Positions 1-39,132 of a DNA stretch of 64,000 nucleotides are shown here, piece by piece. The notes below the pieces were generated by a model that was not told where the DNA came from, searched no databases, and worked only from the letters and a program-made list of their open reading frames with translations. Both the position numbers and the translations under genes were made by a program. Source of the stretch: Eledone cirrhosa (lineage: Eukaryota); the NCBI GenBank assembly GCA_964016885.1, contig OZ024740.1, positions 255,068,001 through 255,132,000 on the forward strand, written 5' to 3'. Position 1 is the stretch's first letter. Every line of letters starts with the position of its first letter.

Positions 1-800
1 CTCTTCAAGAGAACTTTCAGCCCGGGGCCTATGGACAACTTCCAGAAATCCCTGGCCTGGCAGTGCTACCGGGGAGCGTTGCCGGTTCGAGATAAGCTCT
101 ACAGGCACGGAAGTGCCGTCAGCCCGGCCTGTCCGAGATGCGCACAGAGCGACGAAACCGTTGTGCACGTACTCTTTCAGTGTCCTAGCATTGCTGACTT
201 GTGGAACTATGTCGAACATTTGCTGTCACGTGTAGGACAGATCCGTTTATCGACTGAGTCCATTGTGCAGATAGCCCCACCGTCCTCCTTTAAGGAGGGG
301 GAAGGGCAGGCAGTTTTCATCTGCCTGGTGGCCATGGTGAAAGAGATTGTATGGTTGACAAGGTTGAAAGTATTGAAGCCGGACACTTTCCTCCTTCGGT
401 GAATCCCTGATTAACTTTTTCAAATTTCACTTGAAGAGGAAAATCAGAGTGGAGAGACAAGTGCTGTCTTCAAATAAGCTTGTTGAAAGGTGGGTGAAAG
501 TGACGAGTCTGGTCCGAGTGAACGGGCCCGCTCTGAGTATGCGCCTGTAGACTAAGGAGTGGAAAACTGAGAGAGAGCGCTTGTCCTGGTGGTCAGGGTG
601 GTCAGGGTGGCCGTGGTCTTTTGTGTGGTTTTCGCCACGAGTGTCCCTCGGAAGTTTCCCCCCATTGGGGAATTTTTTGTTGTTTGAATTTTTTGATATT
701 TCTATCTTCTTGTTATAACCTTTTTTACACGGCCAAAACCCACTTTGTATCGTCCTGTACCGTTCTGTGCCGTCTGTAATGTTTTGTGGCCAATAAAGAA
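1..800 (+). mobile_element. Tx1-clade LINE copy A, 3' end (ORF2 C-terminus and 3' UTR)
   Basis: ORF 31-402 'RDKLYRHG..CPRCAQSDETVVHVLFQC' matches the ORF2 C-terminal Cys/His motif of the other copies; ends GTGGCCAATAAAGAA (AATAAA 792-797). Confidence 0.9.
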
Positions 801-801
801 A

Positions 802-979
802 CCGGACGCCATGCTTTGACGCATAGAGTTACGTCCCTTGCCATTCTGAGTTCAAATCCTGCCGAGGTTAACTTTGCCTTTCATCCTCACGGGATCGATG
901 AAATAAAGTACCAGTAATGCACTGGGTAATTGCTGGCCTTGTGCCAAAAGTAGAAACAATTATTATTATTATTATTATT
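802..979 (+). mobile_element. tRNA-derived SINE (Meta/MESC-like central domain), 5'-truncated, (ATT)n tail
   Basis: B-box GAGTTCAAATCC, body GGTTAACTTTGCCTTTCATCCT..GATGAAATAAAGTACCAG, end GGCCTTGTGCCAAAAGTAGAAACA(ATT)n; six copies in the window. Confidence 0.85.
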
Positions 980-1194
980 GAATGCCATGGTTGACGGAGG
1001 CTCGGCTCTGTAAGGTATTGTAATTTTTAACCTTTATAACAATTGTAAATTTTTAAAACTTGAACCAAATTGTAGATAAAGACACCCTCCTCCTCACGAG
1101 AGGGGTCTTTCTGCCCGTTGTTTGGCCCTTCGGGGTTAAATAACCAGTTATTGGTGATTTGTGCCCAATATTTATTTTAAACCGTAAAAAAAAC

Positions 1195-3297
1195 ATGGCT
1201 ACAAAAAAGAATTTTCACAAGTCACTCCCACTCCTTCCGTCTTCTTTTTCCCCAATCGTCATTACGTCAGAGAAAAGATTGTCTCTCTCCCTCCCTTCTC
1301 TAAATGTAGTGTCGCCTCTTTCGCAAGCGACGCCATTAAAGAAAAAGAAAAATGTAGTTTCTCGTAGCGTTCTTCGTCAAGAGAACGGGCGTACCGTGGA
1401 ACATTTCTCCACGACGACGATAACGAAAGATGTGTGCGGTAAATACGGAAAGCCATTTCATTCGTCTGACGTCATGAAGAATAGCAGCAGCAGCTGTAAT
1501 AACAGCAGCAGCAAAAACAGTGGCGAGGAAAATACTAGTAGCAGCCGCAATAACCTATCAGCAGCATAAACAGCAACAGCAGCAGCAACAGCAGCAACGA
1601 CAGCAGCAGCAGCAGCAACAGCAACAACAACAACAGTAGCAACAGCGATGGCGGCGGTCGTAGTACCAGCAGCAACAACAAAAGTAACAGCAGCTCTGAC
1701 GACAACAACAACAAGAAAGCAAAACCGATCTCGTTTGCAGGTATCGCAAAGAACCGGGAAACCATCCTTATAACAAATGAGGAATTACAGGAAGCAAGGA
1801 AGATGGTGACGAAAACCGGACACCGAGCAATCTGCAAGGCAGCCGAAGAAATTTTCGTAACCTAACAGCACTGTACGGTCACGTACCGTACAGTAAGCAC
1901 AACATCACGTAGGGTTGAATGAGCCACAGAGGCTCAAATACAAAAGGTCTTAGGGTCTGTGTGGCAGCGGAAAACGCATATCACCCGAGGCAAAAAATAT
2001 GCCACCGTGGACGTGCATTTTTTGCCACACCCCAGGAGGCAAAGGCTCAATCCTTGGTGACCCTAAGGAGCGAGGAAATGGTGTTGGTGCCCTCCTACTG
2101 CGGGAAAAAAATTGAGAGGGTCCAACTGACCCAACTCCCGCACCCCGGGATGGCCCCTTCTTGGCTGGCGGCGTCTGTCCTCGTCGGAATCGAGGAAAAA
2201 CAACCGTACTGCAACTACAGAAAAAAGTACGAGAAGATTGGGTCGGCGCCTCCATTGAGATGTTAATTCAAACCAACCAGGAGTGCATCGAAGTTATCCC
2301 GGATGTGATAGACTTCGATTACGGCACTCAACTTCCCATAAGTTTTGAGGGCAAATGCCCGAAATGCTTTCGCTGTGGGTCGAAGACTCACCTCAGGGCC
2401 TTCTGCAATGAGAAGACCATGAGAAAGGAGAAAACCCCCTCCTTCCGAAACCGGCTCCACTGCTACCATCAACAGGACAGCAGGAAGGATAGGTCCGTGG
2501 CAACCATACCCACCCACGGAAATCAAGAACAGCAGCAGCAGTGGAAGTATTAACAGCAACAACAGTAATACCAACTGCAGCTGCAACAGAGACTCCACTG
2601 CAACCATCACCAACAAGAATAAGTGAAAGAGTGGAGCTGGTACCCCTCCCCGACCTCACAGAATCAGACATGGAGTGTGAGGTGGGAGAGGGATGGCAAA
2701 AGGTCGCAAGAAGGGACAAACGCAGAAGCAGCGCATCGTCGCCTTCGAAAAGGGAGGGAAGAAATGAAACGGGGGTAAAGGCTACTGCAAAGAGACTTAC
2801 AGCAGCAACACCACCAACACCATCACCACCCACACTAGCATTACCATCACCACCGGCAGCAACCCCACCGCCAACAACAACAACACCTTCAACAACACCA
2901 CCACAAGCACCAACATCGCAAACACAACAACAAAACACACACACACAGCAACAACGACAAGAAAATAGCAGAACCACACACCATCCCCAGAAAAAGAAAT
3001 GCACAGCAATAAATACACAAGAAACTAATGACTTACATAATTGAACACACAGACATTTCACAGCACGACTACATAATACCAGCACCAATCAAAACACCAA
3101 CGAACATAAGACTGGTAAGAATATCACAGAAACAATACACAAACAATAAAATGAAATTCCCCAACGCAGTTGGTGATTTCAGAGACCTAGGAGGGACACT
3201 CAACCGGAGAGTATACTCGGATATACTCACAGAAGAGCCGACGACCAGCCGAAGGGACGATTCAACGGTCCCTTCACCAGACGATCAAGGTAAGTGA
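1195..3297 (+). pseudogene. Tx1 ORF1 (nucleic-acid-binding, CCHC zinc knuckle), frameshifted
   Basis: ATG 1195; CX2CX4HX4C 'KCFRCGSKTHLRAFC' in ORF 2161-2553; T/P/Q low-complexity tracts; ends ...DQGK* at 3297. Confidence 0.8.
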
Positions 3298-3329
3298 TCC
3301 TTTCTCACTTGCCCCGTTCCTCACCAAAC

Positions 3330-6300
3330 ATGGCCGTATTCAGGATCGGAAGTGTAAACGTGCGTGGCTTGAGCTCGGTTTGGAAGCAGGGTCACTTGCT
3401 TAACGATCTCAGGTCACTAAACATAGATCTGGTGGTCATCAGCGAGACCAGAATCTCCGAAGCACGAGCCTTCGCACCGATCTTCGGCGGCTACGATGTA
3501 TACGCATCTCTCAGCCGTCCAGGATCAGGGGAGGGGTTGCCGTCCTTTTTCGGAGAGGCTTGGATCTCGCCATAAGGTCCATCTTCCTAGACCCAGAAGG
3601 TAAGTCGGTGGTGCTGGACGTGACCGGCACCGAAGGCAATGCTTTCAGGCTAGTAGCCGTCTACGCCCCAACTGGGGCAGGACGGCCAGATTACTTCAGA
3701 GACCTTTCTTGGAAAGTCCCGATTTTTAGTGTTAGTGGGCGACTGGATGCACGCTGGGATTGTGTGGGGCTAGTGGATAGGGGAGGAGGGTGAAAGAGCC
3801 TCACCAACCTGCTCAGACGTTTTGAACTGTCTGACAGGTATCGAGTGGATCACCCGAATGTGTCAATGTCGACATGGACAAACCGCATCGGGTCATCCAG
3901 ATCGTATCTCGATAGGGTATTCTGCAGAAAACTAGATAAGGCTAGTATAAGTTGTCCACAATTTAAAATCGACATAGACAGACTTCATGTGAGATCGACA
4001 TAGACAGATTTCATAGAACAAGGACCCGGTTACTGGAAGCTGAACGCGCCTTTCCCGGCGCGCAAAGCCGACAGAGACCGGATTAGCGTATTAGTTTAGC
4101 GCGCGTTGACGGGAGCGGTCGTCAACAACAGGTGGTGGTCCGCCCTGAAAAGAGCAATTAAAGTAGAGTCGATTAGGTTTAGTAAAGGAATAGGGATAGA
4201 GGAAAATAGAGTAGAGGGAGAGCTAGTCAGAAAGCTAGAAGAGGCGTTTAGGACAGGCATCGCAACCGACGTCCTTGCGGGGAGATTGGCACGCGACCAA
4301 TTCTTCAAATCAAAACACGAAGGCTGCGTTGTCAGAGCTAGAGCGCCTGCTCTAAAACACGAGAGGACAAAAGCCGTCCAATGGGCCCGGGTGGCAGAGG
4401 CGCGACGTGGCAACAAAGCCACAATTCGGTCTTTATCTGACCAAAACGGGCGCGTGTTGCTCGAACCCGAGCAGATGTGTGAAGTTTTTCAGCAGCACTT
4501 TGCTGAACTGTTCGGGAGCAGGGGCAGGCCGGATCGGGGTATGGACTTCAATGCATACCTAGACGGACTGCCTCGGCTCTCGACGACCGCAGCACAGTGT
4601 TGCGAAAAGCCAATAACAGCCAGTGAAATACGGGAAGCGATGGCTAACTGCACGAGGGGTAAATCGCCAGGTTTGGATGGTCTGCCCTACGAGCATTATG
4701 CATTTATGCCAGACTTGTTCGGTGACCTCTTGGCAGACATCTACTGAAACTGGCAGCAGAACGGGAGCATTCCCAGTTTTGTGAGCTGGGGAGCGGTGGC
4801 GCTGCTTAGAAAAGACCCGGGGATGTTATCAATAACTTCAGGCCAATAACCCTGCTAAACGCAGAGTTCAAGATTTTGGCCAAGGTGTTAGCAACGAGGT
4901 TGGCGCTTGTCGTCAAGGGTCTGGTGGGAGAGGCGCAGAAATGCGCCATTCCGGACAGATCCATACACGACAACCTCCACCTCATGCGATACATCATAGA
5001 GAGTGTGGTTAAGGAACCTGGCACGTGTGAGGCCCTGATCAACTTGGGTCAATCCAAGGCACTCGATAGGGTCGACCATCGGTACCTGGCGGCGGTCCTC
5101 AAGGCGGCCGGTTTCGGGCCCTTTTTTCATGGGTTGGATCGCTGCGATGTACAGCGACATCTGCTCAGTTGTGAGGGTGAACGGTCACTTGTCGCAGCCG
5201 TTCAGCATCATGTGCTCGGTCCGCCACGGTTGTCCCCTCTCGTACCTCTTGTACGTATTGGCTCTCGATCCGTTACTGCACAAACTGGAGGCGATGAGGG
5301 GCGTCCCACGCGAACTAGTATGAGGGAAATCCGAGACGGCTTACGCCGACGACGTCACCGTGGTGGTGTCGAGCCCCAAACACGTCCAGATATTTGGCAC
5401 CGCTCTCAAGGAATACGAAGCGGTGACAGGAGCAAATATAAACCAGGAAAAGTCGGTGGGCTTGCAGCTCTGGACCTGGAGAGGCAAGTCCATGCGGTCC
5501 TACAGCGTCGTGGGGCGTTGGACGGACGGGCCGGTTAAATTGCTTTGGGTCTGGTTCGGTCTGGACCTCCAGATGGAGAAAAACTGGAGCGAGGTGACGA
5601 GCTAGTTGAGCTCCCTCACCCAGAAATGGTCCGAGAGGAAGCTGTCTCTGAAAGGCCGGGCGGAGGTGGCGAATGCGTACATCGCATCTGTCATCTGCTA
5701 CCGCCTCCCCGTCGTCCCTTGCCCCGGCCCAACTCTCACCCAAATGGAGCGCCTCCTCTTCCGCTTTTTGTGGAAGGGACGCGCTCCCATGGTCAGACGA
5801 TCCATCTGCCGTCAACACCCATTGCGTGGAGGACTGGGCATGCCATGTCTGATGATGCGCAAACAAGCGCTGAGGCTGCGACATCTCTGGTGCTTCCTTG
5901 ATGGTGAACAGGTGTGGTCGCCGTTCGCCAGGCACGTTTTCCCATAGCTCGTCTCCTTGACGGAGCTGAAGTCCTGGGTCGGGAAAAGACCGAGGGTTAG
6001 CGCTTGGAAACTGGAATGTCTCCAGGCGCTAACTGCCCTCAGCCAGCTGGGCACCAGTATCGGTGGAACATCCCCCTCGGCGTTCTATAGAGGACTAGTG
6101 GAGGGGAAGAGCGACGACGTATTCGGAGAGATCCTGGGCGTGGAAGAAGATCAGCTGGTTGCTGAGAACTTTCAGCCCAGGGCCTATGGATAACTTCCCA
6201 AAATCCATGGCCTGGCAGTGCTACTGTGGAGCGTTGGTGGTTCGAGATAAGCTCTATAGGCACGGAAGTGCCATCAGCCCGACCTGTCCGAGATGCGCAC

Positions 6301-6700
6301 AGAGCGACGAAACCGTTGTGCACGCACTCGTTCAGTGTCCTAGCATTGCTGACTTGTGGAACTATGTCGAACATTTGCTGTCACGTGTAGGAAAGATCCG
6401 GTTATCGACTGAGTCCATTGTGCAGATGGTCTCGCCGTCTTCCTTCGAGGAGGAAGGGCAGGCGGTTTTCATCTGTCTGGTGGCCATGGCGAAAGAGATT
6501 GTGTGGTGGACAAGGTTGAATGGGTTAAAGACAGATACTTTCCTCTTCGGCGAATCCCTAATTAACTTTTTCAAGTTTCACTTGAAGCCGAAAATCAGGG
6601 TGGAGAGGCAAGTGCTGCCTTCTAGCAAGTGTGTTGAAAGGTGGGTGAATGTAGCGAGAATGGGCCGAGTGAACGGGTCCGCTCCAAATATTCTCTGTAG
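3330..6700 (+). pseudogene. Tx1 ORF2 (APE endonuclease, reverse transcriptase, Cys/His motif), multiple frameshifts and stops
   Basis: SVNVRGL, ISET, VYAP (APE); KSPGLDGLP, FRPITLLN, KALDRVDH, GCPLS, YADD (RT); GGLG; CPRC..ET..HAL..C. Confidence 0.92.
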
Positions 6701-7005
6701 TTTGAGAAATGGAAAAAAATTGAGAGAGGGCACTTGCCCTGTTGGTCAGGGTGGCTGTGGTCTTTTGTGTGGTTTTCGCCACGAGTAACCCTCGGAGGCT
6801 TCCCCCCTATTGGGGAATTTTTCTTTGTTTCAATTTTCATTTTTATTGTTTATATATATATATATATGTTTCTTTGTCTTTTTTTTCTTTTCTATATAAA
6901 TAATAAAAATCTTTATACGCACAAAACCCAAATCGTACCGTCCTGTACCGTCCTGTGCCGTCTGTAATGTTTTTCTTGATGTCAGCCCTTATGGCCAATA
7001 AAAAG

Positions 7006-10000
7006 TGCAGCCTCAGATATTCAGGACGTATCGGAGGGTTCTTGCTGTTCCCAGCAAGCATGCCTTTTGAAGTGTTCCAAAAAGCGGGAGGGGACCAATT
7101 TTCTTTAACCATCCTTGGAAACTCTTTGAGATAGTACCCAGTGCGCCTATGACAATCGGGACCACTTTGACTTCATGGCAGTTCCAAATCCTTTTTACCT
7201 CCCACTTTAAGTCCTTGTATCGGTTAATTTTCTCCATCTCCTTCTCTTGCACTCTCGTGTCGAATGGGCAGGCTGCATCCACAATCAGGCACGATCTTTT
7301 TCCTTGTCCAAAACCACCAGGTCAGGTCTATTGTGTCCAGTTTCTTGTCCGTCTGTATCCTAAAATCCCACAGCACCTTCACCTGATCGTTTTCTATCAC
7401 CGACTCTGGTTTATGCACATACCACTTCTCAGAATGTGGTAAATTGTTTACTTTGCATAGGTGCCAGTGGATCACCCTGCCCATCACATCATGTCTCCGG
7501 CCTTTATAGTGAGTCTGAGCTAGGTGTTTACACTCGGATACAATGTGAGCCACAGTCTCCTCTCTCTCTTCACAGATCCTGCACAGTGGGCTAGCCTCCT
7601 CCTTGTAAATATGGTGTTTCAACCACTTCATTTTGAGGGCCTGCTCTTGCGCAGCCATTAACATTCCTTCTGTAGCCTTTTTAAGGTCTCCTCTTTTTAA
7701 CCAGTTCCATGTCTGTGGATCTCTGAATTCAGTTTTCTCAAAGAAGGTACTATGAAGGGATTTTTCATGAAGGTTGCTCTTTCTCCTTGTTATTTCCTCC
7801 TTGGACATCCCCTGGTCTATTGTCCTCTCCTTCAGTACAATTCTGAGCATTGGCTCCCTACTATCAGTCACGTATTTGTGTAGGTTGTTTTTCTCTATCT
7901 GAACACAGTCTTCTATGTTGATAAGACCTCTTCGACCTTCAGATCTCCTTAAGTAGAGTCTATCGACATCACTCCTCTTGTGGAACATCTTGTAGATAGT
8001 TAATAGCTTCCTCGTCTTGCTATCCATTTCTTTTTGTTCAGCAACATTCCATCTCAGAATTCCCGCACTGTACCTAATAATAGACACAGCTCGGGAATTT
8101 ACTGCACTTATGGCATTCCTACTGTTCAGATGTGACTTTAATACGCTCCTTACTCTCCGGATGTATTCAGTTCTTATCAATTCCTTCATTCTTTTGTTCT
8201 TGATGTCATCAGCCTCCAGAACACCTAAATATTTGTATCCTTCTTCAGTGTCAATTTACTTTATCATCTCACCTGTTGGTACCTGGATTCCGTTGCTTCT
8301 GTTCAACTTACCACTCTTCATCACAAGGACTCCACACTTACTAATACCAAATTGCATACATATATCATTGCTGAAAATACGGACAGTGTCAACAAGCACA
8401 TCCAACTCCTTCTCACTCTACCCGAAGAGCTTAAGATCGTCCATGAAGAGGAGGTGATTGATGGTAAGCTCTCCCTTTCCCAACTTGTATCCTGCTCTCA
8501 CTTTTCGCAGGCATCAGGGCAAGGACAAACAACAGAGGGGACAGACTATCTCCCTGGAAGATACCTCTCTTGATCTTCACGCCTCCCAAGGATTCTCAAG
8601 CCGATGTTAGCTCTGTTTTCCAGGACTTCATACTTTTGCTCAACAACTGTCTGATGTTATCTGCCACCTTGAAGATCTCTTGGCTTTTGGTGATCTAGGA
8701 ATGATGGACCATGTCAAATTCCTTTTTGTAGTCTATCCATCCCATGGCAAGACCAGTCTCCTCTTGCAATTCCTCATTACCATCTTACCAATAAGTAACT
8801 GGTCCTTTGTACCACGGGCATCCTTTCTGTTCGTCCGGTAACAAGTTGTTTATGTGGAGGTGATGGTAGATTTCCTCAGACACAATGCTTGTTAACAGTT
8901 TCCACATTACGGACAGACATGTGATAGGTCTATAGTTGGTAACATCATTACCCTTGATTCGGTCTTTCATTACCAGAACTGTCGTACTTTTTGTCAACCA
9001 CTCTGGTACATCACCTGACATCAAGCAGTCATTGAACATGGTTGTCTGTTTCGGGTAGAGGGATGTTATATTTTTAATCCAATACCCCTGCACACCATCC
9101 GGGCCTGGTGATTTCCAGTTGGTTAGTTTTTTGGCCTGCCCCTTAAGAGTTTCAACTGTGATACTCAAATCAGTTTGTTGGTGTGCCTGTTCACTAATCT
9201 TCTTCTGTACTGTCTCAATCCACACTGCCTGATCATTATGTTTAACATCCTGCTCCCATATTCTCTCCAGAATGTCTTAGTTTGTTCCGCCTCAGGAATC
9301 AAGTCGTTGCCTCTTTCTTTCCCTTCAAGCTGTCCAAACAACATATTCTGGTTGTTGTCAAACATGCGGTTCTGTCTATACTGACTGACTCTGCTCTCGT
9401 ATCGCCTAATTTTTGCACTCTTTGCTACAATGCGTTGCTTCAGTTCCTCTATGATAATAATTAGCTTTTTCCTCCTAGTTTTGTACTTTATTTCCAGTCT
9501 ATTTTTAGTGTCTATGTTTTTTAGTGTCCCATTCAGTAGGGACTCAAGCTTTCCAATGTCAGTTCTCATTTCCCTGATTTGACCATTCAGTCATTTCTTC
9601 CACCAAGGTTCTGATCTTTCTTGTTTGTTGTTTCCTCTCGCTTTTATGCCAAGTAATTTCCTCACCGTATTTGCTGTTGCCTTGAGGATCTCCTCGCCTC
9701 AAGGTATGGGATGACTCTGTTTACCTTAGCTGTTGTTTCTTTTAACTTTTTCCTGTCTACAAATCTTAGGTTCATAGGTTTCCCACTATCATTGTTCATT
9801 TCATCTACCACTAAGTTTAGGATATCAACCAAATCTTATCCAAGCCCGTCAGTATTCATTTCGTCAATGGCCGTATCTTTGTTCCAGGTATTATTTATTT
9901 CAGCATTCAGATCATTGTCTGCTTCGGATGGTTCCTCCGTTCTCTCAACCTCTTCACCTTCATTTCCCACTAGCTCGTTTGCCTTTCATACTACACTCTC

Positions 10001-10440
10001 TATTTCCAACCTAATCTCTCTGCTCAGTTCCTCCTGTTCCAGCTCGCTTATCCACCCATTAGTTCTTATTACCCGAGCCTGCCCGGCCAATTTTTGTTCA
10101 TCTAATTTAAATAGACCAATCTCGTTCCAGATGTTATGCATCCGTTTCCTCTAGCCTTTTTCCTTGGGGTTACTCTTCAGGTAGCATGACAGTTCTATTC
10201 AATTCTTTCGTCCAGTTGGTTCTTGTCCCTTTCCTTCTTCTTCTTCCTCCAACACCAGCAGTATTTGGATGACAGCCAAGTACCTGCTGCTGGACCAGGG
10301 AGCACTTGCTGGGTGAGAGTCTTTCACATGACGTTCCAGTCTCCTTTTCACCGTTATTCGAACTGTTTAGGTTCGACATTTAAACACTCATATCGAGGAT
10401 TGGTTAATGTATGGTTACATCCCCACCGGTGTTTTTAGCG
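7006..10440 (-). mobile_element. R4/Dong-like non-LTR retrotransposon (single ORF: RT plus restriction-like endonuclease), degenerate, 3' UTR mostly lost
   Basis: NWKSPGPDGVQGYWIK, NYRPITCL, RLYL, CRICEEREETVAHIVSEC..RHD, LWDFRIQTD, D..CPFD..KE.EKI.RY.DL, VVPIVIGALG; ATG 10379, stop 7013; clade assigned from remembered motifs. Confidence 0.8.
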
Positions 10441-10562: not shown

Positions 10563-10733
10563 GAGAGTGTCGGACGCCATGCTTTCCAGCATAGTTATGC
10601 CCCTTTACAATCTGAGTTCAAACCCCGCTGAGGTTAACTTTGCCTTTCATCCTTACCAGGTCGATAAAATAAAGTACCAGTAATACACTGGATAAGTGCT
10701 GGCCTTGTGCCAAAAGTAGAAACAATTATTATT
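10563..10733 (+). mobile_element. SINE copy (same family as 802-979)
   Basis: GTCGGACGCCATGC..GAGTTCAAA..GGCCTTGTGCCAAAAGTAGAAACAATTATTATT. Confidence 0.85.
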
Positions 10734-10950: not shown

Positions 10951-11105
10951 TGGACGCACATGTGTGAAGACGTACAAGTCTGAGGTGGAAAAGGTTCGTA
11001 ACTTTAAGCTGTTTTAAAGTATCATTTTTTGTATTTTCTTGTCGATAACGAAGTCAAAGGTACCCACCTTGGTTCCAAGGAGGGGAAACCTCTCAATATT
11101 CTGGC

Positions 11106-11196
<91 letters not shown>

Positions 11197-14100
11197 GACA
11201 AGCCTGTCGCCCATCCCACTGAATACAGAAACAAAACACAAAAGTTTCCATCACAACCTGTAGCAGTACCATCTCAAAATAAAATCACCACCACTGCCGC
11301 CACCACCACCGCCACCACTACCACCACCGCCAACACCACCACCATAACAACAACTCAGAACAACAATGACCATAACACCGACAGTCTCAATGTAAACATT
11401 GTAAACAATGTAAACACTGATGGTGGCGGCAACGGCAACACCAACAAACAAAACAACAACAACAACAACACCAACAACAAGAGCAAGGACGACAACACAA
11501 CAAGAGCAACGGAGGCGCCACCTTTGCAGCGGCAGCAGCGACAACAAAGCGCTTTTTCAATGTAGATATTAGCGATAAGGAACAACAGTTGGTCCAGGCG
11601 TGGAGGTTAATTAAACGAGAGAAGTCCTGGGCAAACCTGACCACCCCGGACGGGGCAATAGCGGTCATGCACAGGAGAACGGTGTACTTTCGATGCATTT
11701 CTGTGCAGACACGCAAAGTGGAACTTGCCAGCCAAGCAGAGGTCGAGGCTGCTTTGTGGTGTATCGGAAGTGACTTCGAGTACAAAGCAAGGGCCAAGCA
11801 GTTCGGTACCATCTCGGTACTGTTCAAAACCGATGCCCTTGCTATTAAGCACTCGGTGACCCCCGGCAAAACGGAACGCATTATCATGCACCCATCCCAC
11901 ATGGGCAAAAGGACAGTAAAGGCCCACATTTCCATGATCCCACCAGGAATGAACATATGGTGGCTCCTGGGATGCGTAATCGAGGAGAGGACAGACACTA
12001 CCCTCCTAGATATCAAAAGGACAGAGAGAGAAGACTGGTCCGGATGGATTTGGAGATTCTTCTCCAAATGAAACCAGATCACATCAACAACATTCTGGAT
12101 TTTGCCCGCCGGCAGGACAGAACAACAATCCAATTAATCACTGAGGAAGAAGGCCGCACTGCTTCGTCTGCGGGGAAGCAACGCATCTGCAAGCCTTCTG
12201 CCCTCAGCTCAAAAATGCAGGGGTTCGCAAACATCCTTTGTTGCCAACACCAGTCTCAGCACGGAAAGCTACACCACCAACACCACCAAAAAAACAACAC
12301 CAACAAAAGACACGGGTAACCCCACCAACATCAAAAACAGCCGGACCACCACCAACACCGAAACCAATCCAAGGGGAAAACGAGGAAAGCTCTCCCACTC
12401 CCCTACCCCTCCAATTATACACATAGACAAAACAATAAACGCACACACAGACACAGCTACACTCACAGCCACAGACCCTTTGTCCTCCAGCAGCGAAGAT
12501 GAAGGAAAACCCAAAAGTACAAAAAAAAACAAAAGAGAAAACTCACAAAACAAAATCCCCGACAAAACACAAAAACATACACAACAAAAATACAGACAGC
12601 ACTAACGCAAACACTTCCCCAATAACATCAACACCAACATCAACATCAACACCACAATCCCCGAAACGCAAACAACCTAAACAAATACAAGTACAAATAA
12701 ACACACAAATACCTGAAATTGCAGACACCACACCTACAACAAATACAGACATACCCGAAACAACACCACCAAAACCATCACCACCACAGTCACCAAAACG
12801 AAAACAAATAAAACGACACCAACAAAATATTAAAAATGTTCGTGCTTGTCAGAAGGGCCAACGATAAATTGATGGCCCTCTTAGCACGAATCGAGGACAT
12901 TCAAACAGAGGGGGAGATCTTTGAAATGAGCACATTTTGCGAGTCAGAAGATTTGTTTCTGGTGCGAATGTCGCTCTATTCCTACAAAGAAATTCAGGAG
13001 AGCTTTCCTCAAGACGTGGGAACCCCGAACGGGAAACCCACATCGAGACTTTTAAAGGGGTTCCCAAAAGAAACCCCACCAGGTATGGAGGTCGAACCAC
13101 CCGACCTTGACTAGACTCCGGGAGGTAAGTAAACCTTCTCTCCCTCATTTAGCTTGCCAACATGGCCATATTAAGAGTAGGAAGTTTAAATGTTCGTGGC
13201 CTGGGGTCACCCTGGAAGCAGGATCTCCTGCTCGACAACCTCAGGTCTCTGGAAATGGATGTGATTGCCGTCAGCGAGACCAGGATTTCCGACACGCGCG
13301 CAGTAGACCACATTTTCGACCACTATCAGATCTTCGCATCTGTTAGCAGGCTGGGAATGGGAGGTGTGATGGCAGTGATGTTTAGGAAAGGCCTGGATCT
13401 CGAGGTAAGGTTGATCTTCCGGGACCCGGACGGTAAGTTGGTGGTCTGGATGTGAGCAGTAGCGAAGGTGGTTCCTTTAGACTGCTGGCCGTCTACGCCC
13501 CTACTGGGGCCGGACGACCGGACTTCTTTAGGCGCCTGGAAACCTTTCTGGGTACGTCTCGCCCTTTACTGGTAGCGGCGGACTGGAACGGCAGCTTAGA
13601 CGCATGCTGGGATTGTGTGGGAGTAGCTGATAGGAGCGGGGGGTGCAAAAGCTGCAAGCACTTACTCAGCCAATTCCAACTGTCGGACAGGTATCGACTA
13701 GATTACCCAATGCGCCAGTGTAGACGTGGACCAACCGCATAGGGTCATCTAGATCGTATATAGACAGGATCTTCATTAGGAAAATAGATAGAAACGGTCG
13801 CCTATTCAGATCACAAATTTGTGATCTGTATGGTCGACCTAGATAAAACGCGTAGGTTAGAACCTGGTTACTGGAAGTTGAACATGTCATTTCCGGCACG
13901 TAAGGCTTACAGGGACCAGGTCAACAATTTAGTCAAACGTTGACTGGGGGGATCATCATCAATAGATGGTGGCGGGCTCTCAAAAGAGAGATTAGAGTAG
14001 CTTCGATAGAGTTGAGCAAACAACTAGCGTTAGAGGAAAATAAAAAGGAGGGGGAGCTGGTAGATAGGTTAGACGAGGTAATTTGTAGTGGCATTGCAAC

Positions 14101-16863
14101 TGACGTGCTAGCGGCGAGAATGGCATTAGACCATTTCTTCAATGCGAAACATGAAGGTTGCATTGTCAGAGCTAAGACGCGTGCGCTGAGAAACGAGGGA
14201 ACCAAAGCTGTTCGATGTGCCCGCGTGGCGGAGGCGCACCGTGGTAATAAAACCACTATTCGGTCTTTGGCGGACCGAGACAGACACGAGATAAGCGATT
14301 CTAAGCGGATGTGTGAGGCCTTTCGCCAGCATTGTGCTCGGTTGTTCGGGGAGACTGGTGGGTCAGAGACAGTAGCGGATTTCAGTCCCTACCTTGACGG
14401 CTTGCCGCGCATCTCGACGGTCGACGCTGAGCGCTGCAAAAGGCCGATTACTTCAGCCGAAATTCAGGACGCCCGTGTCAGCTGCATGAGGCGCAAGTCA
14501 TCCGGTTTGGATGGCCTGCCCTACGAACTTTACGTAAATATGCCAGACTTGTTCTCCGATCTCCTCGAAGCGCTCTACTGCAACTGGCAGCAGAATGGGA
14601 GTATTCTCAGTTCTGTGAGCAGGGGAGTGGTGAGGCTGATAAGGAAGGATGAGAACAAGAGGGATACATTAGACAACTTCAGGCCCATAACTCTGCTCAA
14701 CACAGAGTTTAAGATTTTGGCCAAGGTGTTAACAAAGAGATTGGCGCTTGTTTTCGAGGATTTGGTTGAGGAGGCGCAAACATGCGCAATCCCAGCCAGG
14801 TCCATACACGACAATCTCCACCTCATGCGATATATCATAGAGAGGGTAGGGTGTAAACCTGGCTTCGGTGGGGTACTGATCAATTTAGATCAATCGAAAG
14901 CATTCCATAGGGTCGACCATCGGTAGCTGGAGGCGGTCCTCAAAGCGGCTGGCTTCGGCCCTGTCTTCAGAAGCTGGATCGCTGCAATGCACAGCGGCAC
15001 ATGCACGGTGGTCAAGGTTAATGGCCACCTCTCGGAACCATTTCGGATCTCCCGATCGGTCGGTCAAGGGTTCCCTCTCTCTTCCCTTCTGTACGTATTG
15101 ACTCTTTGAGCCTTTACTGCGGAAGCTGGAGCTGTTGCAGTGCATCCCGCTCGAACCGGGACGTAGAAGGGATGTGTCAGCTTATGCGGACGACATCACC
15201 GTGATGGTGTCGGACACCTCAGAAATCGAGGTGGTTGGCAACTTATTGGAGGAATATGAAAGGTTGACGGGAGCAAAACTTAACCAGGAAAAGTTGGTTG
15301 GCTTGCAACTCGGCACCTGGAGAGGCAAGTCCATGCCGTCCAACAGCGTCATTGGGCGCTGGACGGACGAACCGGTAAAGTTGCTCGGGGTTTGGTTAAG
15401 GCCAGACCTCCAGGTGGATAAAATTAGGACCAGGTAACGAGCAGGGTAGCCAGTCTCACCCAAAAATGAGCTGCGAGGAAGCTATCACTGAAAGGTCGCG
15501 CGGAGGTGGCGAATGCGTACATCACGTCCGTCATCTATAACCGCCTGACTGTCGTGCCTTGCCCTCGTCCGCGCCTCGTCAAGTTGGAACGGCTCCTCTT
15601 CAAATTTTTGTGGAGAAGACAAGTTCCGTTGGTGAGGCGGTCCATCTGCTGCCAGAACCCTCTACGAGGAGAGCTGGGCAGGCCGTGGCTAATGATGCGC
15701 AAACATGCGCTGAGGCTGCGACATCTCCAGATATTCTTCCTAAACGGTGAATAGGTGTGGTCGCCGTTTATCAGACGGGCGTTTCCGCAGTTCGTTTCTT
15801 TGACTGAGCTGCAATCGTGGGTCAAGAAGAGACCGATATTAGGTGACTCGCACCTAGAATGTTGCCAGGCTCTCACTGCCCTCTACCAAGCGGGCAATGC
15901 GATCAGTGGAACTTTCACTCTCGAGTTCTATAGAGGAATAGTGGTGGGCAAGCGCGATGACGCACTCGGAGAGGCTCAGGGTCCTGACGAAGTCGAACTG
16001 ACCAGTCTGTTCCGGAGGACTTTCGAGCCGGGGACGATGGACAAGTTCCAGAAATCCCTCGCTTGGCAGTGCTACCGGGTTGGGGGGGGGGGGGCACTGC
16101 AAGTTCGGGATAAACTCTATACGGAAGTGATGTCAGATGGACCTGCCCAAGATGCGCACAGAGCGACGAAACCGTTCTACACGCACTTGTCCAATGTCGG
16201 TGTATTACTGACTTGTGGAGTTATGTCGAACAGCTACTGTCCCGTGTAGAACAGATCCGGCTATCGGCCGAGTCCATAGTGAAGATCGACCCGCCTCTTT
16301 CCTTTGGACAGGAAGAGCAGGCAATTTTCCTCTGTCTGGTGGCAGTTGCGAAAGAGGTTATATGGTGGACCAGATTGAAATGACTGAAGACAGACACTTT
16401 TCTCTTCGGCCAATCCCTTATCAACTTCTTCAAGTTTCACCTGGAAAGGAAGGTGAGGGTGGAGAGAGAAGTGCTCCCCCCAGTATATTTGCTAAAAGGT
16501 GGATGAATGTGGCGCGAATAGCCAGTGTGAATGGGCCTACTCTGACCATGCGCCTATAGGCTAGCCAACTTGAGGTGAGGGGTGCTCTTCCTGGGTGCCC
16601 TAGAAGCGGAGGGTGGTTCAGAATTGGTGGGGTACCTGAGTCACTCCTGGAACATCCACCCCCTATAGGGGAATTTATTTATTTTGTTATATTTATACAT
16701 AGTTTATTTTATATTTGTATATCTTCATTGTTAAATTAGTCTTGCCATGGTGCACTTTTACTAGACCTTATCGTAAACCCCCACTGTCCCTCTCTTTGTA
16801 TTGTCCCCTACATGCCGGCCCTTGTGGCCAATAAATGAAATCATTATTATTATTATTATTATT
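10951..16863 (+). mobile_element. Tx1-clade LINE copy C (second subfamily), near full-length, degenerate, (ATT)n tail
   Basis: Starts after TATTATTATT; ORF1 with broken knuckle CFVCGEATHLQAFC (~12160); ORF2 ATG 13162 (MAILRVGSLNVRGL), RT motifs 13940-15437; ends GGCCCTTGTGGCCAATAAATGAAATC(ATT)n. Confidence 0.9.
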
Positions 16864-19800
16864 GGCTTTGTTGCCACGACGCGCCTCCGCCATTCGGGCC
16901 CATCAAACGGCTTTCGGCCCCTCGTGTCTGAGAGCACGCACCCTAGCTCTGACAACGCAGCCTTCTTGCTTTGCGTTGAAACAATGGTCGAGAGCCAATT
17001 TTGCCGCAAACACGTCGGTCACGATGCATTTACAAAGCGCCTCGTCTAATTTGCTAACTAGATCTCCCTCTGCTCTATTTTTCTCTATTACTAACGCCTT
17101 ACTAAACCTAATGGACTCTATTCTAATCGTTCTTTTTAGAGCAAACCACCATTTGTTGTTGACGATGGTCCCCGTCAACGCTCGCTTAGCTAATTCGCTA
17201 ATCCGGTCTCTGTAAGCTTTGCGCGCTGTTAACGACGCGCTTAGCTTCCAGTAGCCAGGTCCCTGTCTATGAAGCATATCTAAGTCAACCACACAGATCA
17301 CGAATTTGTGATCCGTGTAGTCGATTATCTAGAATTGTGGACAGCCTATGCTATACCTATCTATTTCCCTAAAAATACCCTATCTAGATATGATCTGGAT
17401 GACTCGATGCGGTTTGTCCATGTCCACATTGGCACATTCGGGAAATCCAGACGGTACCTGTCAGACAGTTGAAAACGTCTAAGCAGGTTTGCGAGGATTT
17501 TACAGCTTCTTCCCCTATGCGCTAATCCCACACAGTCCCAGCATGCATCTAAGATACCGTTCCAGTCGCCCACTAACATTAAAGAGCGGGACGTTCCAAG
17601 AAAGGTCTCTAGACGCCGGAAGAAGTCAGGCCGTTCTGCTCCTGTTGGGGCATAGACGACCACTAGCCTGAAAGCTTGCCCTTCTCCACTGGTCACGTCC
17701 AGCACCACCAACTTACCTTCTGGGTCCAAGAAGACGAGATCCAGACTTCTCCGGAACAACACAGTCACCCCACCCACCCCCAAATCTAAGATGGCTTGGA
17801 AATGTGTATACCTCGTAGCTGCCGAAAATGGGTGCGAATGCCCGTGCCTCGGAGATTTTGGTCTCGCTGAAGGTCACCACATCTATGTTTAGCGACATTA
17901 GATCGTTGAGCAGGTGGCCTTGCTTCCAAGACGACCCCAGGTCACGTGCATTTATGCTACCTATCCTCTGAGAAGCCATGTTGGCTAGAAGAGGAGGAAA
18001 ACAAGTGAGAGGGGAAAAGTAAAAAAATTTACCTGTGGCTCATTTTTAGGAAGGGGGTGGGTGATCCATCCCTCCGACCAGTAGCGGGTTTCTCCACGAG
18101 AATGTCTGTGAATATTCTTTTAGTGATGTTCCCTCGGTAGTCTCCAATTGATGTGGGGAACATTTTTTTTAATGTCATGTAATTTTTGGGGGTGATTTCT
18201 ATTATTTTTATGTGTTGGGAGGGGGGGGGGGGTTAATTTTGGTGGCCTGTACGTTCTGTGATGTGGGTGTGGTGTTAAATGTAATTTAAAAGCTTTGTGT
18301 TGTCTGTGTCTATGGCTGTGTATTGTGTCTGCTGTTGGGGTGTTGATGCTGTCTGTGTTTGCTGTGGTGTTGTTGGAGGTGACGATGGGGTAGATGCTAA
18401 TCGTGGCGGTGGTGGTGATGATGGTGGTGGTGGTTATGGGGGTATGGCTGTTGATGGTGGTGGGGGAGGTGGTGTCGTTTTCATTTTTTCTTTGGGGTTT
18501 CTTTCTCTCCTTTTTTGGGGGGTGGGGGTGGGGGTGGAGGTAGGGAGTTCTTCCTTTTTTGCTGGGATGGTTTTCCATCCTTCGGCCTCATCGCACTCCT
18601 TGTCCGATTTAGCAATATCGGGAAAGGTAATACTCTCCATTGGTTCTGTTGGTGGTGGAGGAGATGGTGCTTTTGTTATTGGGGATACTGATTTTTCTTC
18701 TGCCACTGAGGTCTTGGTTGGTTTGTCCACTCCAGTCGCAAGGTACGGCGTAGGGAGAAGGGGGAGCGCGTGCTCGTTTTGGTGAGTTTGGGGCAGAAAG
18801 CATTAAGGTGCGTTTTGTCACCGCATCCATGACATCTTGGGCGCCTACCTTCGACAGTCACGGGTGGATGGCTGCCGTCGTCCAGGTCTATTACATCGGG
18901 GATGGCCTCGATGCTCTCATGGTCTGCTTGGATGATTAGCTCCACCCCCGACCCTGTCTAATTCTCCTGTCTTATTCGCATGACGTCGAGTATAGTTGTT
19001 GTATCCTCAACGTCAGCGAGGACGGCCGCCATCAAACACGCCATCTCCACTGAGGGTGGAACCTGGATTACTCGAACCCTTACGACTCTCTGGCCACAGT
19101 ATGTGGGCATCATTATTATTTCGTCACTGCGGAGTGGCGCAATGGAGTGTGCTCTGGCTTCTTCCGGCGTAGCGAAGAGCATACTCACAGTGCCATACCC
19201 CAATTGTATGTTTTCTGTGCCCAGATGGCCCCCATAGCCCTTTGGACCTCTGACTTCGCTGCCCGTTCGACTCGGCGCGATTTTATTCCGATTGTGCGAT
19301 AACTGACCGAATACAAAAGCTTGTTTTTTTTATTATATTAGCTAGGCGGGTGAGACTTACCCTGTGTTCGGTCTTTAATCCACATTGCTTGCTTTAATCT
19401 ACATTGGGGCTGTATACCCGTTCAACGATGTGGTTGTGGTCTGCTGTGCTGACTCATCGCTAGTCTTGCCTTTGTTGCTGCTGTTGTTGTTGTTGTTGTT
19501 GCGTTCTTGTTGGGTTTTTTCCTTCTGTGTAGCTGCTGTTACAGTTGTTGCTCCCTGGGTTCTTTATAGCTGTTGCTGCTGTTATTGTTGGTATTGAGGT
19601 GGCAGTGGTGTCTGATGCTTCTAATGATGGAACATTTTCGTCGTAGTTTGCGCTGATGCTGCTACTGTTTCAGTAGTTGTTGCTGCTGTTGTTGTCACTG
19701 CCACTGCCACTGTGGCTGCTGCTGTTTCTGTTGTTCTTGCCTGTGTCTTGTGATTGGACGGAATCGGCTGTTCTACCCTTCGAACAACCCGCTGTTCCTC

Positions 19801-20030
19801 CCTGTGGACAATTTTTTTGTCCGCCATCTTTTTTTTTAACAAAAAATTGAGGGGTACGATTGTAAATAAATACAAATTCAGCCCTTAAGGTTAAAAAACC
19901 ACCTCCTTTGAAAGAGGGGTTCTTTAACTGCACAACAATGTAAAAATTACTATTTAAAAGTTTCGATAAGTTCAAAAAATTCAACTGACTTACTCCGTCG
20001 TAGTTGCACACGTCTCGAGAGATTCAGCAC
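16864..20030 (-). mobile_element. Tx1-clade LINE copy D: 5' UTR, ORF1 and ORF2 N-terminus on the minus strand (inverted 5' half of D/E)
   Basis: Knuckle RCHGCGDKTHLNAFC (18676-18945); APE MASQRIGSINAR, VYAP, GDWN, SYLDR (17361-17979); breaks at ..RRGNKA. Confidence 0.9.
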
Positions 20031-20040
20031 ATAATAATAA

Positions 20041-22305
20041 CGGCGGGCGCATGCTACTCAATCTCGGGCATATGTGTGCGGCTTTTCAGCAGCACTTTGC
20101 TCAACTGTTCGGGAGCAGTGGCGGGCCGGATCGTGGGATGGACGTTAGTGCCTACCTCGACGGACTGCCGCGGCTCTCGGCCATTGAGGCGGAGTGTTGC
20201 GAAAAGCCGATAACATCCGCTGAAGTACGGGAGGCAATGACTGGCTGCACAAGGGTAAATCGCCTGGATTGGATGGTCTGCCCTACGAACTTTACGTTCA
20301 GATGCCAGACTTGTTCGGAGACCTCTTGGCAGGCGTCTACTGCAACTGGCATCAGAACGGGAGAATTCCCAGCTCTGTGAGCCGAGGAGGGGTGGCGCTG
20401 CTGAGAAAGGACCCGAACAAGGGGGATAACATAGATAATTTCAGGCCCATAACTCTGCTAAATTCAGATTTCAAGATTTTGGACAAGATGTTATCAACGG
20501 GACTGTCGCTTGTCGTCGGTGATCTGGTAGGAGAGGCGCAGACATGCGCCATACCAGACAGATCCATCCATGACAACCTCCACCTCATGCGATACATCGT
20601 GGAGAGGGTAGCTAGAGAACCTCGCACGGGTGGGTCCTTTTAGATCAGTCGAGGGCGGCTGGCTTTGGGCCCGTCTTCAGAGGCTGGATCGCTGCCATAT
20701 GCAGCATATGCAGAGGATGTCACCGTAGTGGTGTCGAACGCCAAACATATCGAGGCGATCGGCACTACACTAACAGATTACGAGGCGGTAACAGGAGCAA
20801 TGATCAACCAGGAAAAGTCGGTGGGCCTGCAGCTCGGCACCTGGAAAGGCAGGCCCATGCCATCCGACAGCGTCATCGGGCGCTGGACAGACGGACCGGT
20901 TAAATTGCTAGGGGTCTGGTTCGGTCCGGACCTCCAGATGGACAAAAACTAGGACGAGGTGACGAGCAGGGTGGCTTCTCTCACCCAGAAATGGGCAGAG
21001 AGGAAGTTATCCCTGAAAGGTCGAACAGAGGTGGCGAACGCGTACATCACGTCCGTAATCTACTATCGCCTGACCGTCGTGCCTTACCTAAGTATCGCCT
21101 GACAGCGCTGGATCGTTTGCTCTTTCGCTTTGTGTGGAAGGGACGTGCTCTGATGGTCAGGCGGTCCATCTGCTGTCACCACCCACTACGGGGAGGGCTG
21201 GGCATGCTGTGGCTGATGATGCGCAGACATGCACTCAGGCTACGGCATCTCCACCTCTTCCTCGACGGTGATCAGGTGTGGTCGCCCTTTGCTAGACGCG
21301 TGTTTTCTCAACTTGTCTCTTTGACGGAGCTGCAGTCCAGGGTCAAGCGAAGACCGAGTGGAAGCGCTTGGAGACTGGAATGTCTTCATGCACTTACAGC
21401 CCTCGATCAGTCGGGCAATGCGATCTATAGAGGATTAGTGGAGGGGAAGAGCGACGACGTACTTGGGGAGACTCTGGGCGTCGACGAAAATCAACTAGCC
21501 AATCTCTTTGGGAGAACTTTCGGGTCGGGGCCTATGGACAACTTCCAGAAATCCCTGGCCTGGCAGTGCTACCAAGGAGCTTTGCCAGTTCGGGATAAAC
21601 TCTACAGGCATGGAAGTGCCGTCAGCCGGGCATGTCCGAGATGCGCACATGGCTACGAAACCGTCCTGCACGCACTCGTCCAGTGTCCGAGCATTGCTGA
21701 CTTGTGGGTTTATCTTGAACACCTGCTGTCGCGTGTAGGACGGATCCGGCTATCAGCTGAGTCCATCGTGAGGATTACCCCGCCCTCTTCCTTTAGCCGG
21801 GAAGGGCAGGCAGTTTTTATCTGTCTGGTGGCCATGGCGAAAGAGATAGTATGGTGGACACGTTTGAAAGGGCTGAAGACGAGCACTTACCTCTTCGATG
21901 ATGCCCTGATTAACTTTTTCAAATTTCATTTGAAAAGGAAAATCAGGGTAGAGAGGGAAGTGCTCTCTTCCCAGCATTTTGTCGAAAGATGGGTGAGAGA
22001 GGCAAGAATGGCCCGAGTGAATGGACCTACTCTGAGTATGTGTCTGTAAATTAAAGGTGGAAAACTGGGAGAGGGCACTTGCCCTGGTGGTCAGGGTCAC
22101 TGTGGCTTTTTAATGGGCTTTCTCCACGAATGTCCCTAGGAAGTCCCCCCCCCCCCCCTATTGGGGAATTTTTCATTGTTATTTTTTTGTTATATCCTCT
22201 GCTTTTGTTTTTTACACGCAGAAATGCCCATTTGTACCGTCCTGTATTGTCCTGTACTGTCCTTAATGTCTACTTTATGTAAACCCTTGTGGTTAATAAA
22301 GAAAG

Positions 22306-22348
<43 letters not shown>
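20041..22348 (+). mobile_element. Tx1-clade LINE copy E: 3' half of ORF2, 3' UTR and (ATT)14 tail (direct half of D/E)
   Basis: Begins GRMLL..MCAAFQQHFA; RT motifs with internal deletions near 20650-20700; Cys motif; AATAAA 22295-22300; tail 22307-22348. Confidence 0.9.
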
Positions 22349-28300: not shown

Positions 28301-28482
28301 ATTCAAACTCACACACACGCAGGCAGACATCCTCAGTTTTATATATATAGATAAAAATATTTACACGCACAAAACCCACATCGTACCGTCCTGTACCGTC
28401 CTGTGCCGTCTGTAATGTTTTTGATGTCAGCCCTTGTGGTCAATAAAGAAATCATTTTATTATTATTATTATTATTATTATT
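22349..28482 (+). mobile_element. Tx1-clade LINE copy F (B-like subfamily), near full-length, degenerate, Helitron in 3' UTR
   Basis: Knuckle KCYLCGQKGHLKAFC; ORF1 ends DQGK* 24518; ORF2 ATG 24551; RT YADD ~26534; AATAAA 28442-28447 then (ATT)n. Confidence 0.9.
27760..28351 (-). mobile_element. Non-autonomous Helitron
   Basis: Minus strand A|TCTATATATATAAAA...CCCGTGCAACGCCGGG hairpin..CTAG|T; removing it restores the Tx1 3' UTR seen in copy B, with no TSD. Confidence 0.88.

Positions 28483-32825: not shown

Positions 32826-32872
<47 letters not shown>
28483..32872 (+). mobile_element. Tx1-clade LINE copy G (C-like subfamily), 5'-truncated within ORF1, long (ATT)n tail
   Basis: Starts in the tail of F; homologous to C from 12357 onward; ends GGCCCTTGTGGCCAATAAATGAAATC(ATT)n. 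Confidence 0.9.
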
Positions 32873-33074
32873 GGGCGTTGAATTGGCAGTATCGGCAGAG
32901 GGTCGGACGCCATGCTTTCCAGCATAGTTACGTCCCTTTACGATCTGAGTTCAAATCCCGCCGAGGTTAACTTTGCCTCCCATCCTTACGGGGTCGATAA
33001 AATAAAGCACCTGTAATGTACTGGGTAATTGCTGGCCTTGTGCTAAAAGTAGTAACAATTATTATTATTATTAT
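32873..33074 (+). mobile_element. SINE copy, near full-length, directly after the tail of G
   Basis: A-box-like TGGCAGTATCGG, B-box GAGTTCAAATCC, (ATT)n tail. Confidence 0.88.
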
Positions 33075-38849: not shown

Positions 38850-39132
38850 GGCGGTGGATTGGCAGTATCGGTAGAGGGTCGGACGCCATGCTTTGACGCA
38901 TAGAGTTACGGCCCTTGCCATTCTGAGTTCAAATCCCGCTGAGGTTAACTTTGCCTTTCATCCTTACGGGGTCGATAAAATAAAGTACCAGTAATACACT
39001 GGGTAATTGCTGGCCTTGTGCCAAAAGTAGAAACAATTATTATTATTATGCACTGGGATGTCGATAAAATAAAGTACCAGTAATACAATGAGATAATTGC
39101 TGGCTTTGTGCCAAAAGTAGAAAAAATTATTA
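38850..39132 (+). mobile_element. Full SINE copy followed by a tandem 3'-end fragment
   Basis: GGCGGTGGATTGGCAGTATCGG..(ATT)n to 39049; partial copy 39050-39132; further 3'-end fragments 38733-38785. Confidence 0.88.

Follow-up and report, generated by a model that had tools for sequence, protein, structure and literature searches.

A candidate SINE/LINE pair in Eledone cirrhosa: an abundant SINE sharing a predicted 3' hairpin with Tx1-like LINEs

In the genome of Eledone cirrhosa, an abundant SINE and a group of Tx1-like LINEs constitute a well-supported candidate SINE/LINE pair. The SINE shares the 3' end of these LINEs, and comparison of the sequences makes it fairly likely that it is copied by their ORF2 enzyme, which would recognize a small predicted hairpin in that end. 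The components of this reading differ in strength: it is very probable that the Tx1-like lineage is the partner of the SINE and, granted such a partner, the hairpin is likely to be needed. The common 3' end together with the same kind of landing site indicates that the SINE likely uses the enzyme of the Tx1-like LINE, which is the likely engine for an element occupying about 2% of the sampled DNA.

Layout of the window

The window, i.e., the whole stretch of 64,000 nucleotides analyzed here (assembly GCA_964016885.1, contig OZ024740.1, positions 255,068,001 to 255,132,000), contains in its first 33 kb clustered LINE copies in a decayed state, and SINEs mark where these copies meet. The relevant features are listed below.

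1 to 802, plus strand: 3' part of a Tx1-like LINE with a B-type end variant without the 5' stem arm; it adjoins the SINE without an ATT tail
803 to 958, plus strand: 5'-truncated short-form tRNA-like SINE, 89.5% identical to the copy at 53050-53238
934 to 946, plus strand: 3' hairpin of this SINE (stem 935-937/943-945, loop 938-942, optional outer pair 934/946), with 16 nt between loop and tail
959 to 979, plus strand: (ATT)7, tail of the SINE and also landing site of the Tx1-like LINE starting at 980
980 to 7003, plus strand: full-length, decayed Tx1-like LINE with APE, RT and zf-RVT fragments
10564 to 10733, plus strand: 5'-truncated SINE
10951 to 16842, plus strand: Tx1-like LINE copy C (5' boundary approximate)
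16817 to 16863, plus strand: 3' end of copy C (hairpin 16817-16829, loop 16821-16825, AATAAA 16830-16835, tail 16843-16863)
22282 to 22348, plus strand: 3' end of an E-family copy (loop 22286-22290 as in copy C, outer pairs A-U and not G-C, tail 22307-22348)
28429 to 28483, plus strand: 3' end and ATT tail of a B-family copy (hairpin 28429-28441)
32802 to 32872, plus strand: 3' end of copy G (hairpin 32802-32814, tail (ATT)15)
32873 to 33072, plus strand: full-length SINE inserted in the tail of copy G
34692 to 34860, plus strand: 5'-truncated SINE
38847 to 39131, plus strand: full-length SINE followed by the 3' half of a second SINE
53050 to 53238, minus strand: full-length SINE with a 16-bp target duplication at 53239-53254 and 53034-53049 that starts with ATTATT

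The B-type end variant of the LINE at 1-802 was also found at another locus (L342), where it carries a tail. The tail of the LINE at 980-7003 has been replaced by a Dong-like insertion in reverse. Dong-like elements with a (TAA)n end were observed reversed inside Tx1-like (ATT)n tails both in the window (7006-10431) and at loci L198, L199, L202, and L203, and thus three element types compete for one repeat.

Several unrelated 5' ends were noted among the Tx1-like copies (window positions 980 and 22349; L152-L160). E-type ORF2 and 3' ends were found with at least two different 5' ends, and the copy at 980 combines an E-type 5' end with a B-type 3' end. In the E-family copy at 16864-22306 the 5' half is inverted, resembling the twin priming of L1: reference position 3471 adjoins the ATT tract on the left, the forward part restarts at 3493, and the inverted part seems to reach the 5' end of the element and a short ATT run. 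Separately, a tandem repeat of ~420 bp at 57434-58586 has open frames on three readings, and the single frame tested gave no Pfam match.

The SINE

The SINE has a length of ~185-215 nt and is found in two forms, a short one, as in the window, and a long one with ~30 additional bases before the hairpin. Being short, non-coding and dispersed in many copies with target duplications and a repeat tail, it has the properties that define a SINE. A sample of 60 stretches of 10 kb, evenly spaced over 17 large contigs of the 3.0-Gb genome, contained 110 hits that covered 13,973 bp of 600,000 bp (~2%), and 66 of these hits extended to the 3' end; extrapolation from this 600-kb sample gives ~300,000 copies. 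A first-look search of the genome returned 1579 candidates, the best of the others at 97-99%. The tail usually consists of 1-2 ATT units (46/56 copies), compared to (ATT)7 at 959-979.

Motifs resembling A and B boxes were recognized in the SINE head by eye only; the head had no Rfam match at E<=1, and ARAGORN made no call on any window copy. Elsewhere in the window, ARAGORN reported a tRNA-Ala(GGC) at 51014-51087 on the minus strand, which ends near a short ATT run and is probably another tRNA-derived repeat. The preliminary description had called the SINE "Meta/MESC-like", a label that found no support: by eye its body is unlike the bivalve Meta/MESC rows of published supplements, and a text search showed its body words to be absent there. 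The element may well be one of the octopus tRNA-derived SINEs OK, OR1, and OR2. OR2 is named in PMC4758252. By eye, the body resembles more closely the GTACC-ending stretch of several published SINE rows (PMC5804259). Octopus SINEs carry the labels tRNA-Core and tRNA-Deu (PMC8967140) and are among the largest repeat classes in octopus genomes (PMC13282606; PMC8967140); the accessible portions of these two papers name no partner LINE for them.

The shared 3' end

At 930-958 the SINE end reads as previously quoted, with (ATT)7 after it, and so do the LINE ends before 16843 and 32828. The predicted hairpin proposed to be common to both is indeed found in both, with an alignment ungapped in the hairpin, an identical loop and one stem pair flipped. 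The shared stretch comprises 25-35 nt with ~55-60% identity, with SINE-LINE identities of 0.45-0.63 in the 16 nt that follow the loop and 0.26-0.46 in the 20 nt that precede it. For scoring, alignments were anchored at the 3' end and the tail was left out. Against the two LINE ends named above, the SINE at 930 obtained 22 and 18, values matched by 0/500 genomic 40-mers preceding ATTATT and 0/200 shuffles. The controls were 500 drawn from what remained of 1134 after removal of 70 SINE- or Tx1-like ends, and their mean was ~1.5, with the 99th percentile at 10-12. Against Tx1-like ends, two short SINE copies scored 12-22 and two long copies 14-32. The long form is the better LINE match, and the short form is without ~30 internal bases of it; the score of 30-32 between long SINEs and family C was reached by 0/500 genomic controls (maximum 20) and 0/200 shuffles.

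The comparison panel consisted of 19 single natural copies, cut by eye and labelled from domains and tree only. Six were Tx1-like, and the other 13 LINE 3' ends from the genome were five CR1-like, five RTE-like, one Nimb-like, and two Dong-like. The genome holds ~119,000 RT candidates, and the similarity searches scored only the best 40-150 hits. With the tail included, a Tx1-like end was the best match for 280/283 SINE copies (215/217 short and 65/66 long); without it, 205/217 short and 62/66 long copies had a Tx1-like end as their only best match. These copies were gathered via a body motif, and the counts are not independent trials, since the copies share ancestry and the panel contains six Tx1-like rows. 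A single CR1-like end reached 20 (SINE at 930) and 16 against two short SINEs, level with the Tx1-like ends, and 12 and 4 against long ones; with the tail excluded it averaged 19.0, against 17.4-23.7 for the Tx1-like ends.

The earlier preference for a Tx1-like partner over other LINE families held against all sampled RTE-, Nimb-, Dong-, and CR1-like ends; no L2 family was identified in the genome sample. Dong-like elements, which end in (TAA)n on the opposite strand and scored 0, were rejected as partners, as were RTE-like elements, with (TGA)n, (ATGT)n or (AT)n ends, the Nimb-like element, with a (CAA)n end, and other CR1-like elements, ending in (TTGAA)n, (ATCAAAGTT)n-type or (AAATG)n repeats. 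Just one of the 13 non-Tx1 panel ends, that of the CR1-like family CR1a, carries (ATT)n. In the two next-best-scoring CR1-like families, (TA)n follows in 6/7 copies shown. Two CR1-like families (L180, L181, L183, L185, and L189; window 47309-48745) were mostly followed by (TA)n, which suggests (TA)n targeting. An exact genome-wide pattern search for a hidden LINE with the SINE stem and AATAAA returned 13 hits, all of them SINE copies. In 600 kb, loose matching to the SINE-type end gave 66 hits, every one of them a SINE body (48 short, 12 long, and 6 judged by eye to be variants or truncated), and the 30 zf-RVT loci were without exception members of family B, C or E.

Hairpin structure and covariation

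The hairpin is formed by a CTTGT loop closed by three base pairs and is located 16-17 nt before the tail. The distance from loop to tail is 16 nt in 190/217 short and 52/66 long SINEs, 16 nt in LINE families B and E, and 17 nt in family C. Pairing at each of the three inner positions is retained by 204-206 of 209 short and 50-53 of 54 long SINEs; the fourth pair is poorly kept (138/209 and 3/54, respectively). In 113 LINE ends the stem arms were AACC/GGTT (41), GGCC/GGCC (19), GGCC/GGCT (12), and AGCC/GGCC (9), with pairing maintained. At pair 2, SINEs have G-C and LINEs have C-G, and family E has A-U where family C has G-C. Overall, both-sided changes affect 3/4 pairs, and scores of slid controls were lower. 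This covariation amounts to few family-level changes, the shuffle test being inflated by related sequences and two of the five measures not exceeding shuffles. It is only from the covariation that we infer a putatively strict recognition of the hairpin by the Tx1-like enzyme.

Between LINE families, identity is at background (0.26-0.37) in the region 21-40 nt upstream of the loop and peaks at 0.82-0.94 in the loop, indicating that the terminal 35 nt are constrained. In the LINEs the hairpin lies directly before AATAAA, a polyadenylation-type signal. Folding energy was not significant and was discarded as evidence for the hairpin: none of six SINE/LINE ends was clearly more stable than shuffles (z -1.8 to +0.3), and the SINE copy at 53050 folds into a different hairpin. 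In one sequencing run, no variant at a frequency of at least 10% was listed over the hairpin. The two elements share with stringent pairs a common 3' end and tail repeat as well as a stem-loop with compensatory changes, the latter of three pairs and weak by energy.

The Tx1-like LINEs

The ORF2 of the Tx1-like LINEs carries APE (PF03372), RT (PF00078), and zf-RVT (PF13966) domains. A close relative (72%, P0001) gave 174 bits with human L1 ORF2 vs 88 bits with R2, and in the tree the Tx1-like rows stand apart from CR1-, RTE-, and Dong-like rows with support of 100/99. APE, RT, a C-terminal zinc motif and an RT nearer to L1, i.e., the hallmarks of the L1 group, were thus all found in these LINEs. 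Six octopod LINE rows and an Argonauta protein form one clade (100/99), the next being unnamed 50-56% relatives. Named homologues of the window LINE proteins come from Argonauta and Octopus, and a named Tx1 element is absent among the homologues listed. Pfam gave no ORF1 hit; families B, C, D, and E have in ORF1 a CCHC knuckle of the form C-x2-C-x4-H-x4-C. Such a knuckle is a marker that tells Tx1 from vertebrate L1. A search for papers linking ZCCHC3 with Tx1 found none. A preference for a target sequence, as in the Tx1 clade, is also present: 30/30 full-length copies follow an ATT-based tract, 26 of them with at least four perfect units. In Octopus vulgaris, L1-Tx1 is given as the sole L1-group class among recently active LINEs (PMC13282606). 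We use the label Tx1 because of the L1-group membership, the CCHC knuckle, the repeat targeting and the activity of L1-Tx1 in Octopus vulgaris, and the LINE families, placed in a tree with no named Tx1 reference, would belong to the Tx1 clade.

The intact LINE has an unbroken ORF2 frame of 1204 codons from stop to stop, and copies are 99.9% identical. The terminal repeat is (ATT)n in families B, C, and E and (ATCT)n in sister families, with a related hairpin before AATAAA in all. The (ATCT)n sister families with the hairpin (L097, L130, L135, L146, and L155) point to a tail or target switch within one clade. The hairpin was unseen in 7 3' regions from 31 metagenome loci of relatives outside octopods, which are mostly 24-35% identical and too distant to inform. 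In one metagenome relative (L306, 29%), a stretch at 80-112 near the 5' end is, by eye, what we take to be a U1 snRNA-like motif, and the element ends in poly(A). With these two features it resembles the U1-headed Tx1 families described in PMC4494074.

Insertion sites and ages

The 16-bp duplication starting with ATTATT that had been reported beside the minus-strand SINE at 53050-53238 was confirmed, and its site is inside a ~59-bp tandem repeat. A duplication was accepted when its right copy started in the tail and its left copy had identical letters. Duplications of at least 11 bp were present in 19/55 random SINE copies vs 6/400 mismatched pairs, and in two searched sets in 18/45 and 18/40 copies, with controls of 5/400 and 15/400. 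They measure 11-19 bp, and 43/55 from the three sets start with ATTAT, mostly after C or T. ATTAT was found within ~30 nt to the left of the 5' junction in 36/56 SINEs, 15/27 truncated Tx1-like copies and 0/16 CR1a copies, against a background of 6%. The truncated Tx1-like set is non-random and consists of the 27 junctions left after 14/41 were dropped as nested. In this set duplications of at least 11 bp (6/27 vs 68/400 in the control) are not above control because ATT repeats match by chance. Duplications with non-repeat letters were seen in L245 (14 bp) and L249 (11 bp), and the LINE duplication length rests on few informative copies. The expected agreement in targets between the SINE and the LINEs is seen in ATTAT to the left of both the SINE and the truncated Tx1-like copies. 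For CR1a, duplications of at least 11 bp were found in 0/16 truncated copies, with 14/30 loci running beyond the flank; compared with the SINE, Fisher p was 0.004 for duplications and 4e-6 for ATTAT on the left.

At least four ATT units precede 26/30 full-length LINE copies, compared to 2/27 truncated LINE copies and 5/56 SINEs. One possible explanation of this difference is that upstream ATT is carried in the RNA. The interleaving of the two elements at ATT tracts had also been put forward as evidence of partnership, and this argument did not survive: full-length LINEs lie in SINE tails in 11/30 cases (by eye), and SINE tails already make up 7/26 of the (ATT)4+ tracts, so that interleaving provides no additional evidence beyond plain shared targeting.

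Regarding age, random SINE copies are 0-23% from the column majority (median 6.1%). In best-hit sets, which lean young, medians were 1.2-1.8% for the SINE and 2.3-2.7% for the Tx1-like ends, and the nearest neighbours of young SINE copies are 0.6-1.2% apart. Tx1-like copies extend from 99.9% pairwise identity down to 84-95% from the intact copy. The SINE and Tx1-like ranges overlap, as a partnership would predict, and the two elements show the matching insertion signature and concurrent activity of a stringent pair. A very young CR1-like family was also encountered, namely CR1a (L211-L240), with 40/40 best hits identical over 211 bp, an ATT tail and no target duplications.

Proposed mechanism and alternative explanations

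An ancestral SINE may initially have acquired a Tx1-like 3' UTR end via template switch or recombination. RNA polymerase III would transcribe the SINE, which would have lost the AATAAA of the LINE and retained loop, stem, and spacing. Subsequently, ORF2p would bind the hairpin and its endonuclease would nick the complementary strand at (C/T)|ATTAT, the ...ATAAT-3' end released there would pair with the AUU tail and prime reverse transcription, and a second nick 11-19 bases off would give rise to the target duplication. Target-primed reverse transcription with 3' recognition is an established scheme for L2 (PMC4176376).

It is also conceivable, albeit unlikely in our view, that the same Tx1-like partner works in a relaxed manner, ORF2p needing only the pairing of AUU tail and target, and that the hairpin is a relic of capture or serves 3'-end processing of the LINE. 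The weakness of the hairpin and its position right before AATAAA in the LINEs would fit such a situation, as would the low SINE-LINE identity and the fact that SINEU has been ascribed to Tx1-Mar without a shared 3' end (PMC4494074). The B-type variant without the 5' stem arm, present at two loci (window 770-802 and L342), may likewise have moved hairpin-less, or it may have been duplicated later. However, the SINE has no AATAAA and has nonetheless kept the loop, the three pairs and the spacing, with a both-sided change at pair 2, and the LINE families ending in (ATCT)n also retain the hairpin. These observations argue for recognition of the hairpin by the Tx1-like enzyme, the reading that we prefer.

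Partners outside the Tx1-like lineage appear still less plausible. It is improbable that an unsampled, rare or extinct LINE (L2, Hero/R2-like or another L1-group element) is the true partner and that the likeness to Tx1-like ends reflects shared tail ancestry. The panel of 19 single copies is small next to ~119,000 RT candidates, the searches scored only their best 40-150 hits, Hero and R2, listed as active in Octopus vulgaris (PMC13282606), are outside it, and no present family closely matches the SINE; against this, the 66/66 loose end matches in 600 kb and the 13/13 hits with SINE stem and AATAAA were SINEs, and 30/30 zf-RVT loci belonged to families B, C, and E. In addition, the SINE has young copies and its partner must therefore have been recently active, which counts against an extinct one. 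Mobilization by the young CR1a family via the tail alone is very improbable: CR1a does have the same (ATT)n tail and is very young, but its 3' similarity to the SINE is nil (scores 0-4), and neither duplications (0/16) nor ATTAT (0/16) accompany its copies, as opposed to 19/55 and 36/56 for the SINE. Finally, a chance likeness of short AT-rich ends is hardly credible and has been largely refuted. The match is short and the comparison was picked after seeing it, yet the score of 30-32 for the long SINE against family C was reached by 0/500 controls and 0/200 shuffles, and spacing, loop and landing site agree independently.

Relation to known systems

A stringent ancestor is assumed for mammalian L1, whose recognition would have been relaxed later, and the structure of human L1 ORF2 has been solved. 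On balance, we lean slightly towards the view that an animal L1-group lineage reads a structured RNA 3' end and that an abundant octopus SINE rides on it, which would be the first Tx1 pair in an animal to have a hairpin in common, and a present-day instance of the stringent condition from which poly(A)-reading mammalian L1 is assumed to derive. Since young intact LINE copies exist in an animal, the stringent-ancestor idea becomes testable beside human L1. If true, a signal of three pairs and a five-base loop would be a very small recognition element.

The preliminary description knew of no account of such a pairing. This is accurate to the extent that our full-text literature search turned up no SINE that has its 3' end in common with a Tx1 LINE, although such a pair could be noted in Repbase, Dfam or SINEBase. 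Dependence of a SINE on Tx1 has nevertheless been proposed before, namely for SINEU and Tx1-Mar of crocodilians, where the SINE was ascribed to Tx1 machinery by target preference and age (PMC4494074). SINEU is comparable to the SINE described here in that the Tx1-clade assignment draws on target and age, some SINEU families being less choosy than the LINE (PMC4494074). On the other hand, SINEU has U1/U2 heads and poly(A) tails, while the present SINE has a tRNA-like head, an (ATT)n tail and a shared structured 3' end; for SINEU-1, that study detected no LINE with a matching 3' end (PMC4494074). The name "TX1" in PMC4176376 refers to a mutant protein, not to a clade, and that paper was set aside in this respect.

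Among L1-group elements, LINEs and SINEs with a shared 3' end are exemplified by ZmSINE2/3 with LINE1-1_ZM in maize and SINEX-3_CR with L1-1_CR in Chlamydomonas (PMC3747384), which are the only shared L1-group tails that we found in print, as far as the accessible text goes. The maize pair also has a hairpin with compensatory changes, interpreted as stringent recognition (PMC3747384). These pairs belong to plants and a green alga and share ~50-80 nt (PMC3747384), whereas the present one is animal, microsatellite-targeting and shares 25-35 nt. A small 3' stem-loop with a short repeat tail, as observed here, is typical of the stringent L2, CR1, RTE, and Nimb pairs (PMC4176376; PMC4824008; PMC11481361). 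For L2 pairs, binding and mobilization have been shown experimentally (PMC4176376), while here they are predicted from sequence. In bivalves, the SINE partners reported are CR1, CR1-Zenon, L2, and Nimb, with Tx1 unmentioned in the portion of the paper available, and the pairs are 72-95% identical over 35-61 bp, above the identity of the pair described here (PMC11481361). Insertion in simple repeats is also known for the fish Tx1 elements Kibi and Koshi, which use (TC)n and (TTC)n (PMC4494074), compared to (ATT)n for the LINEs of Eledone cirrhosa and (ATCT)n for their sister families.
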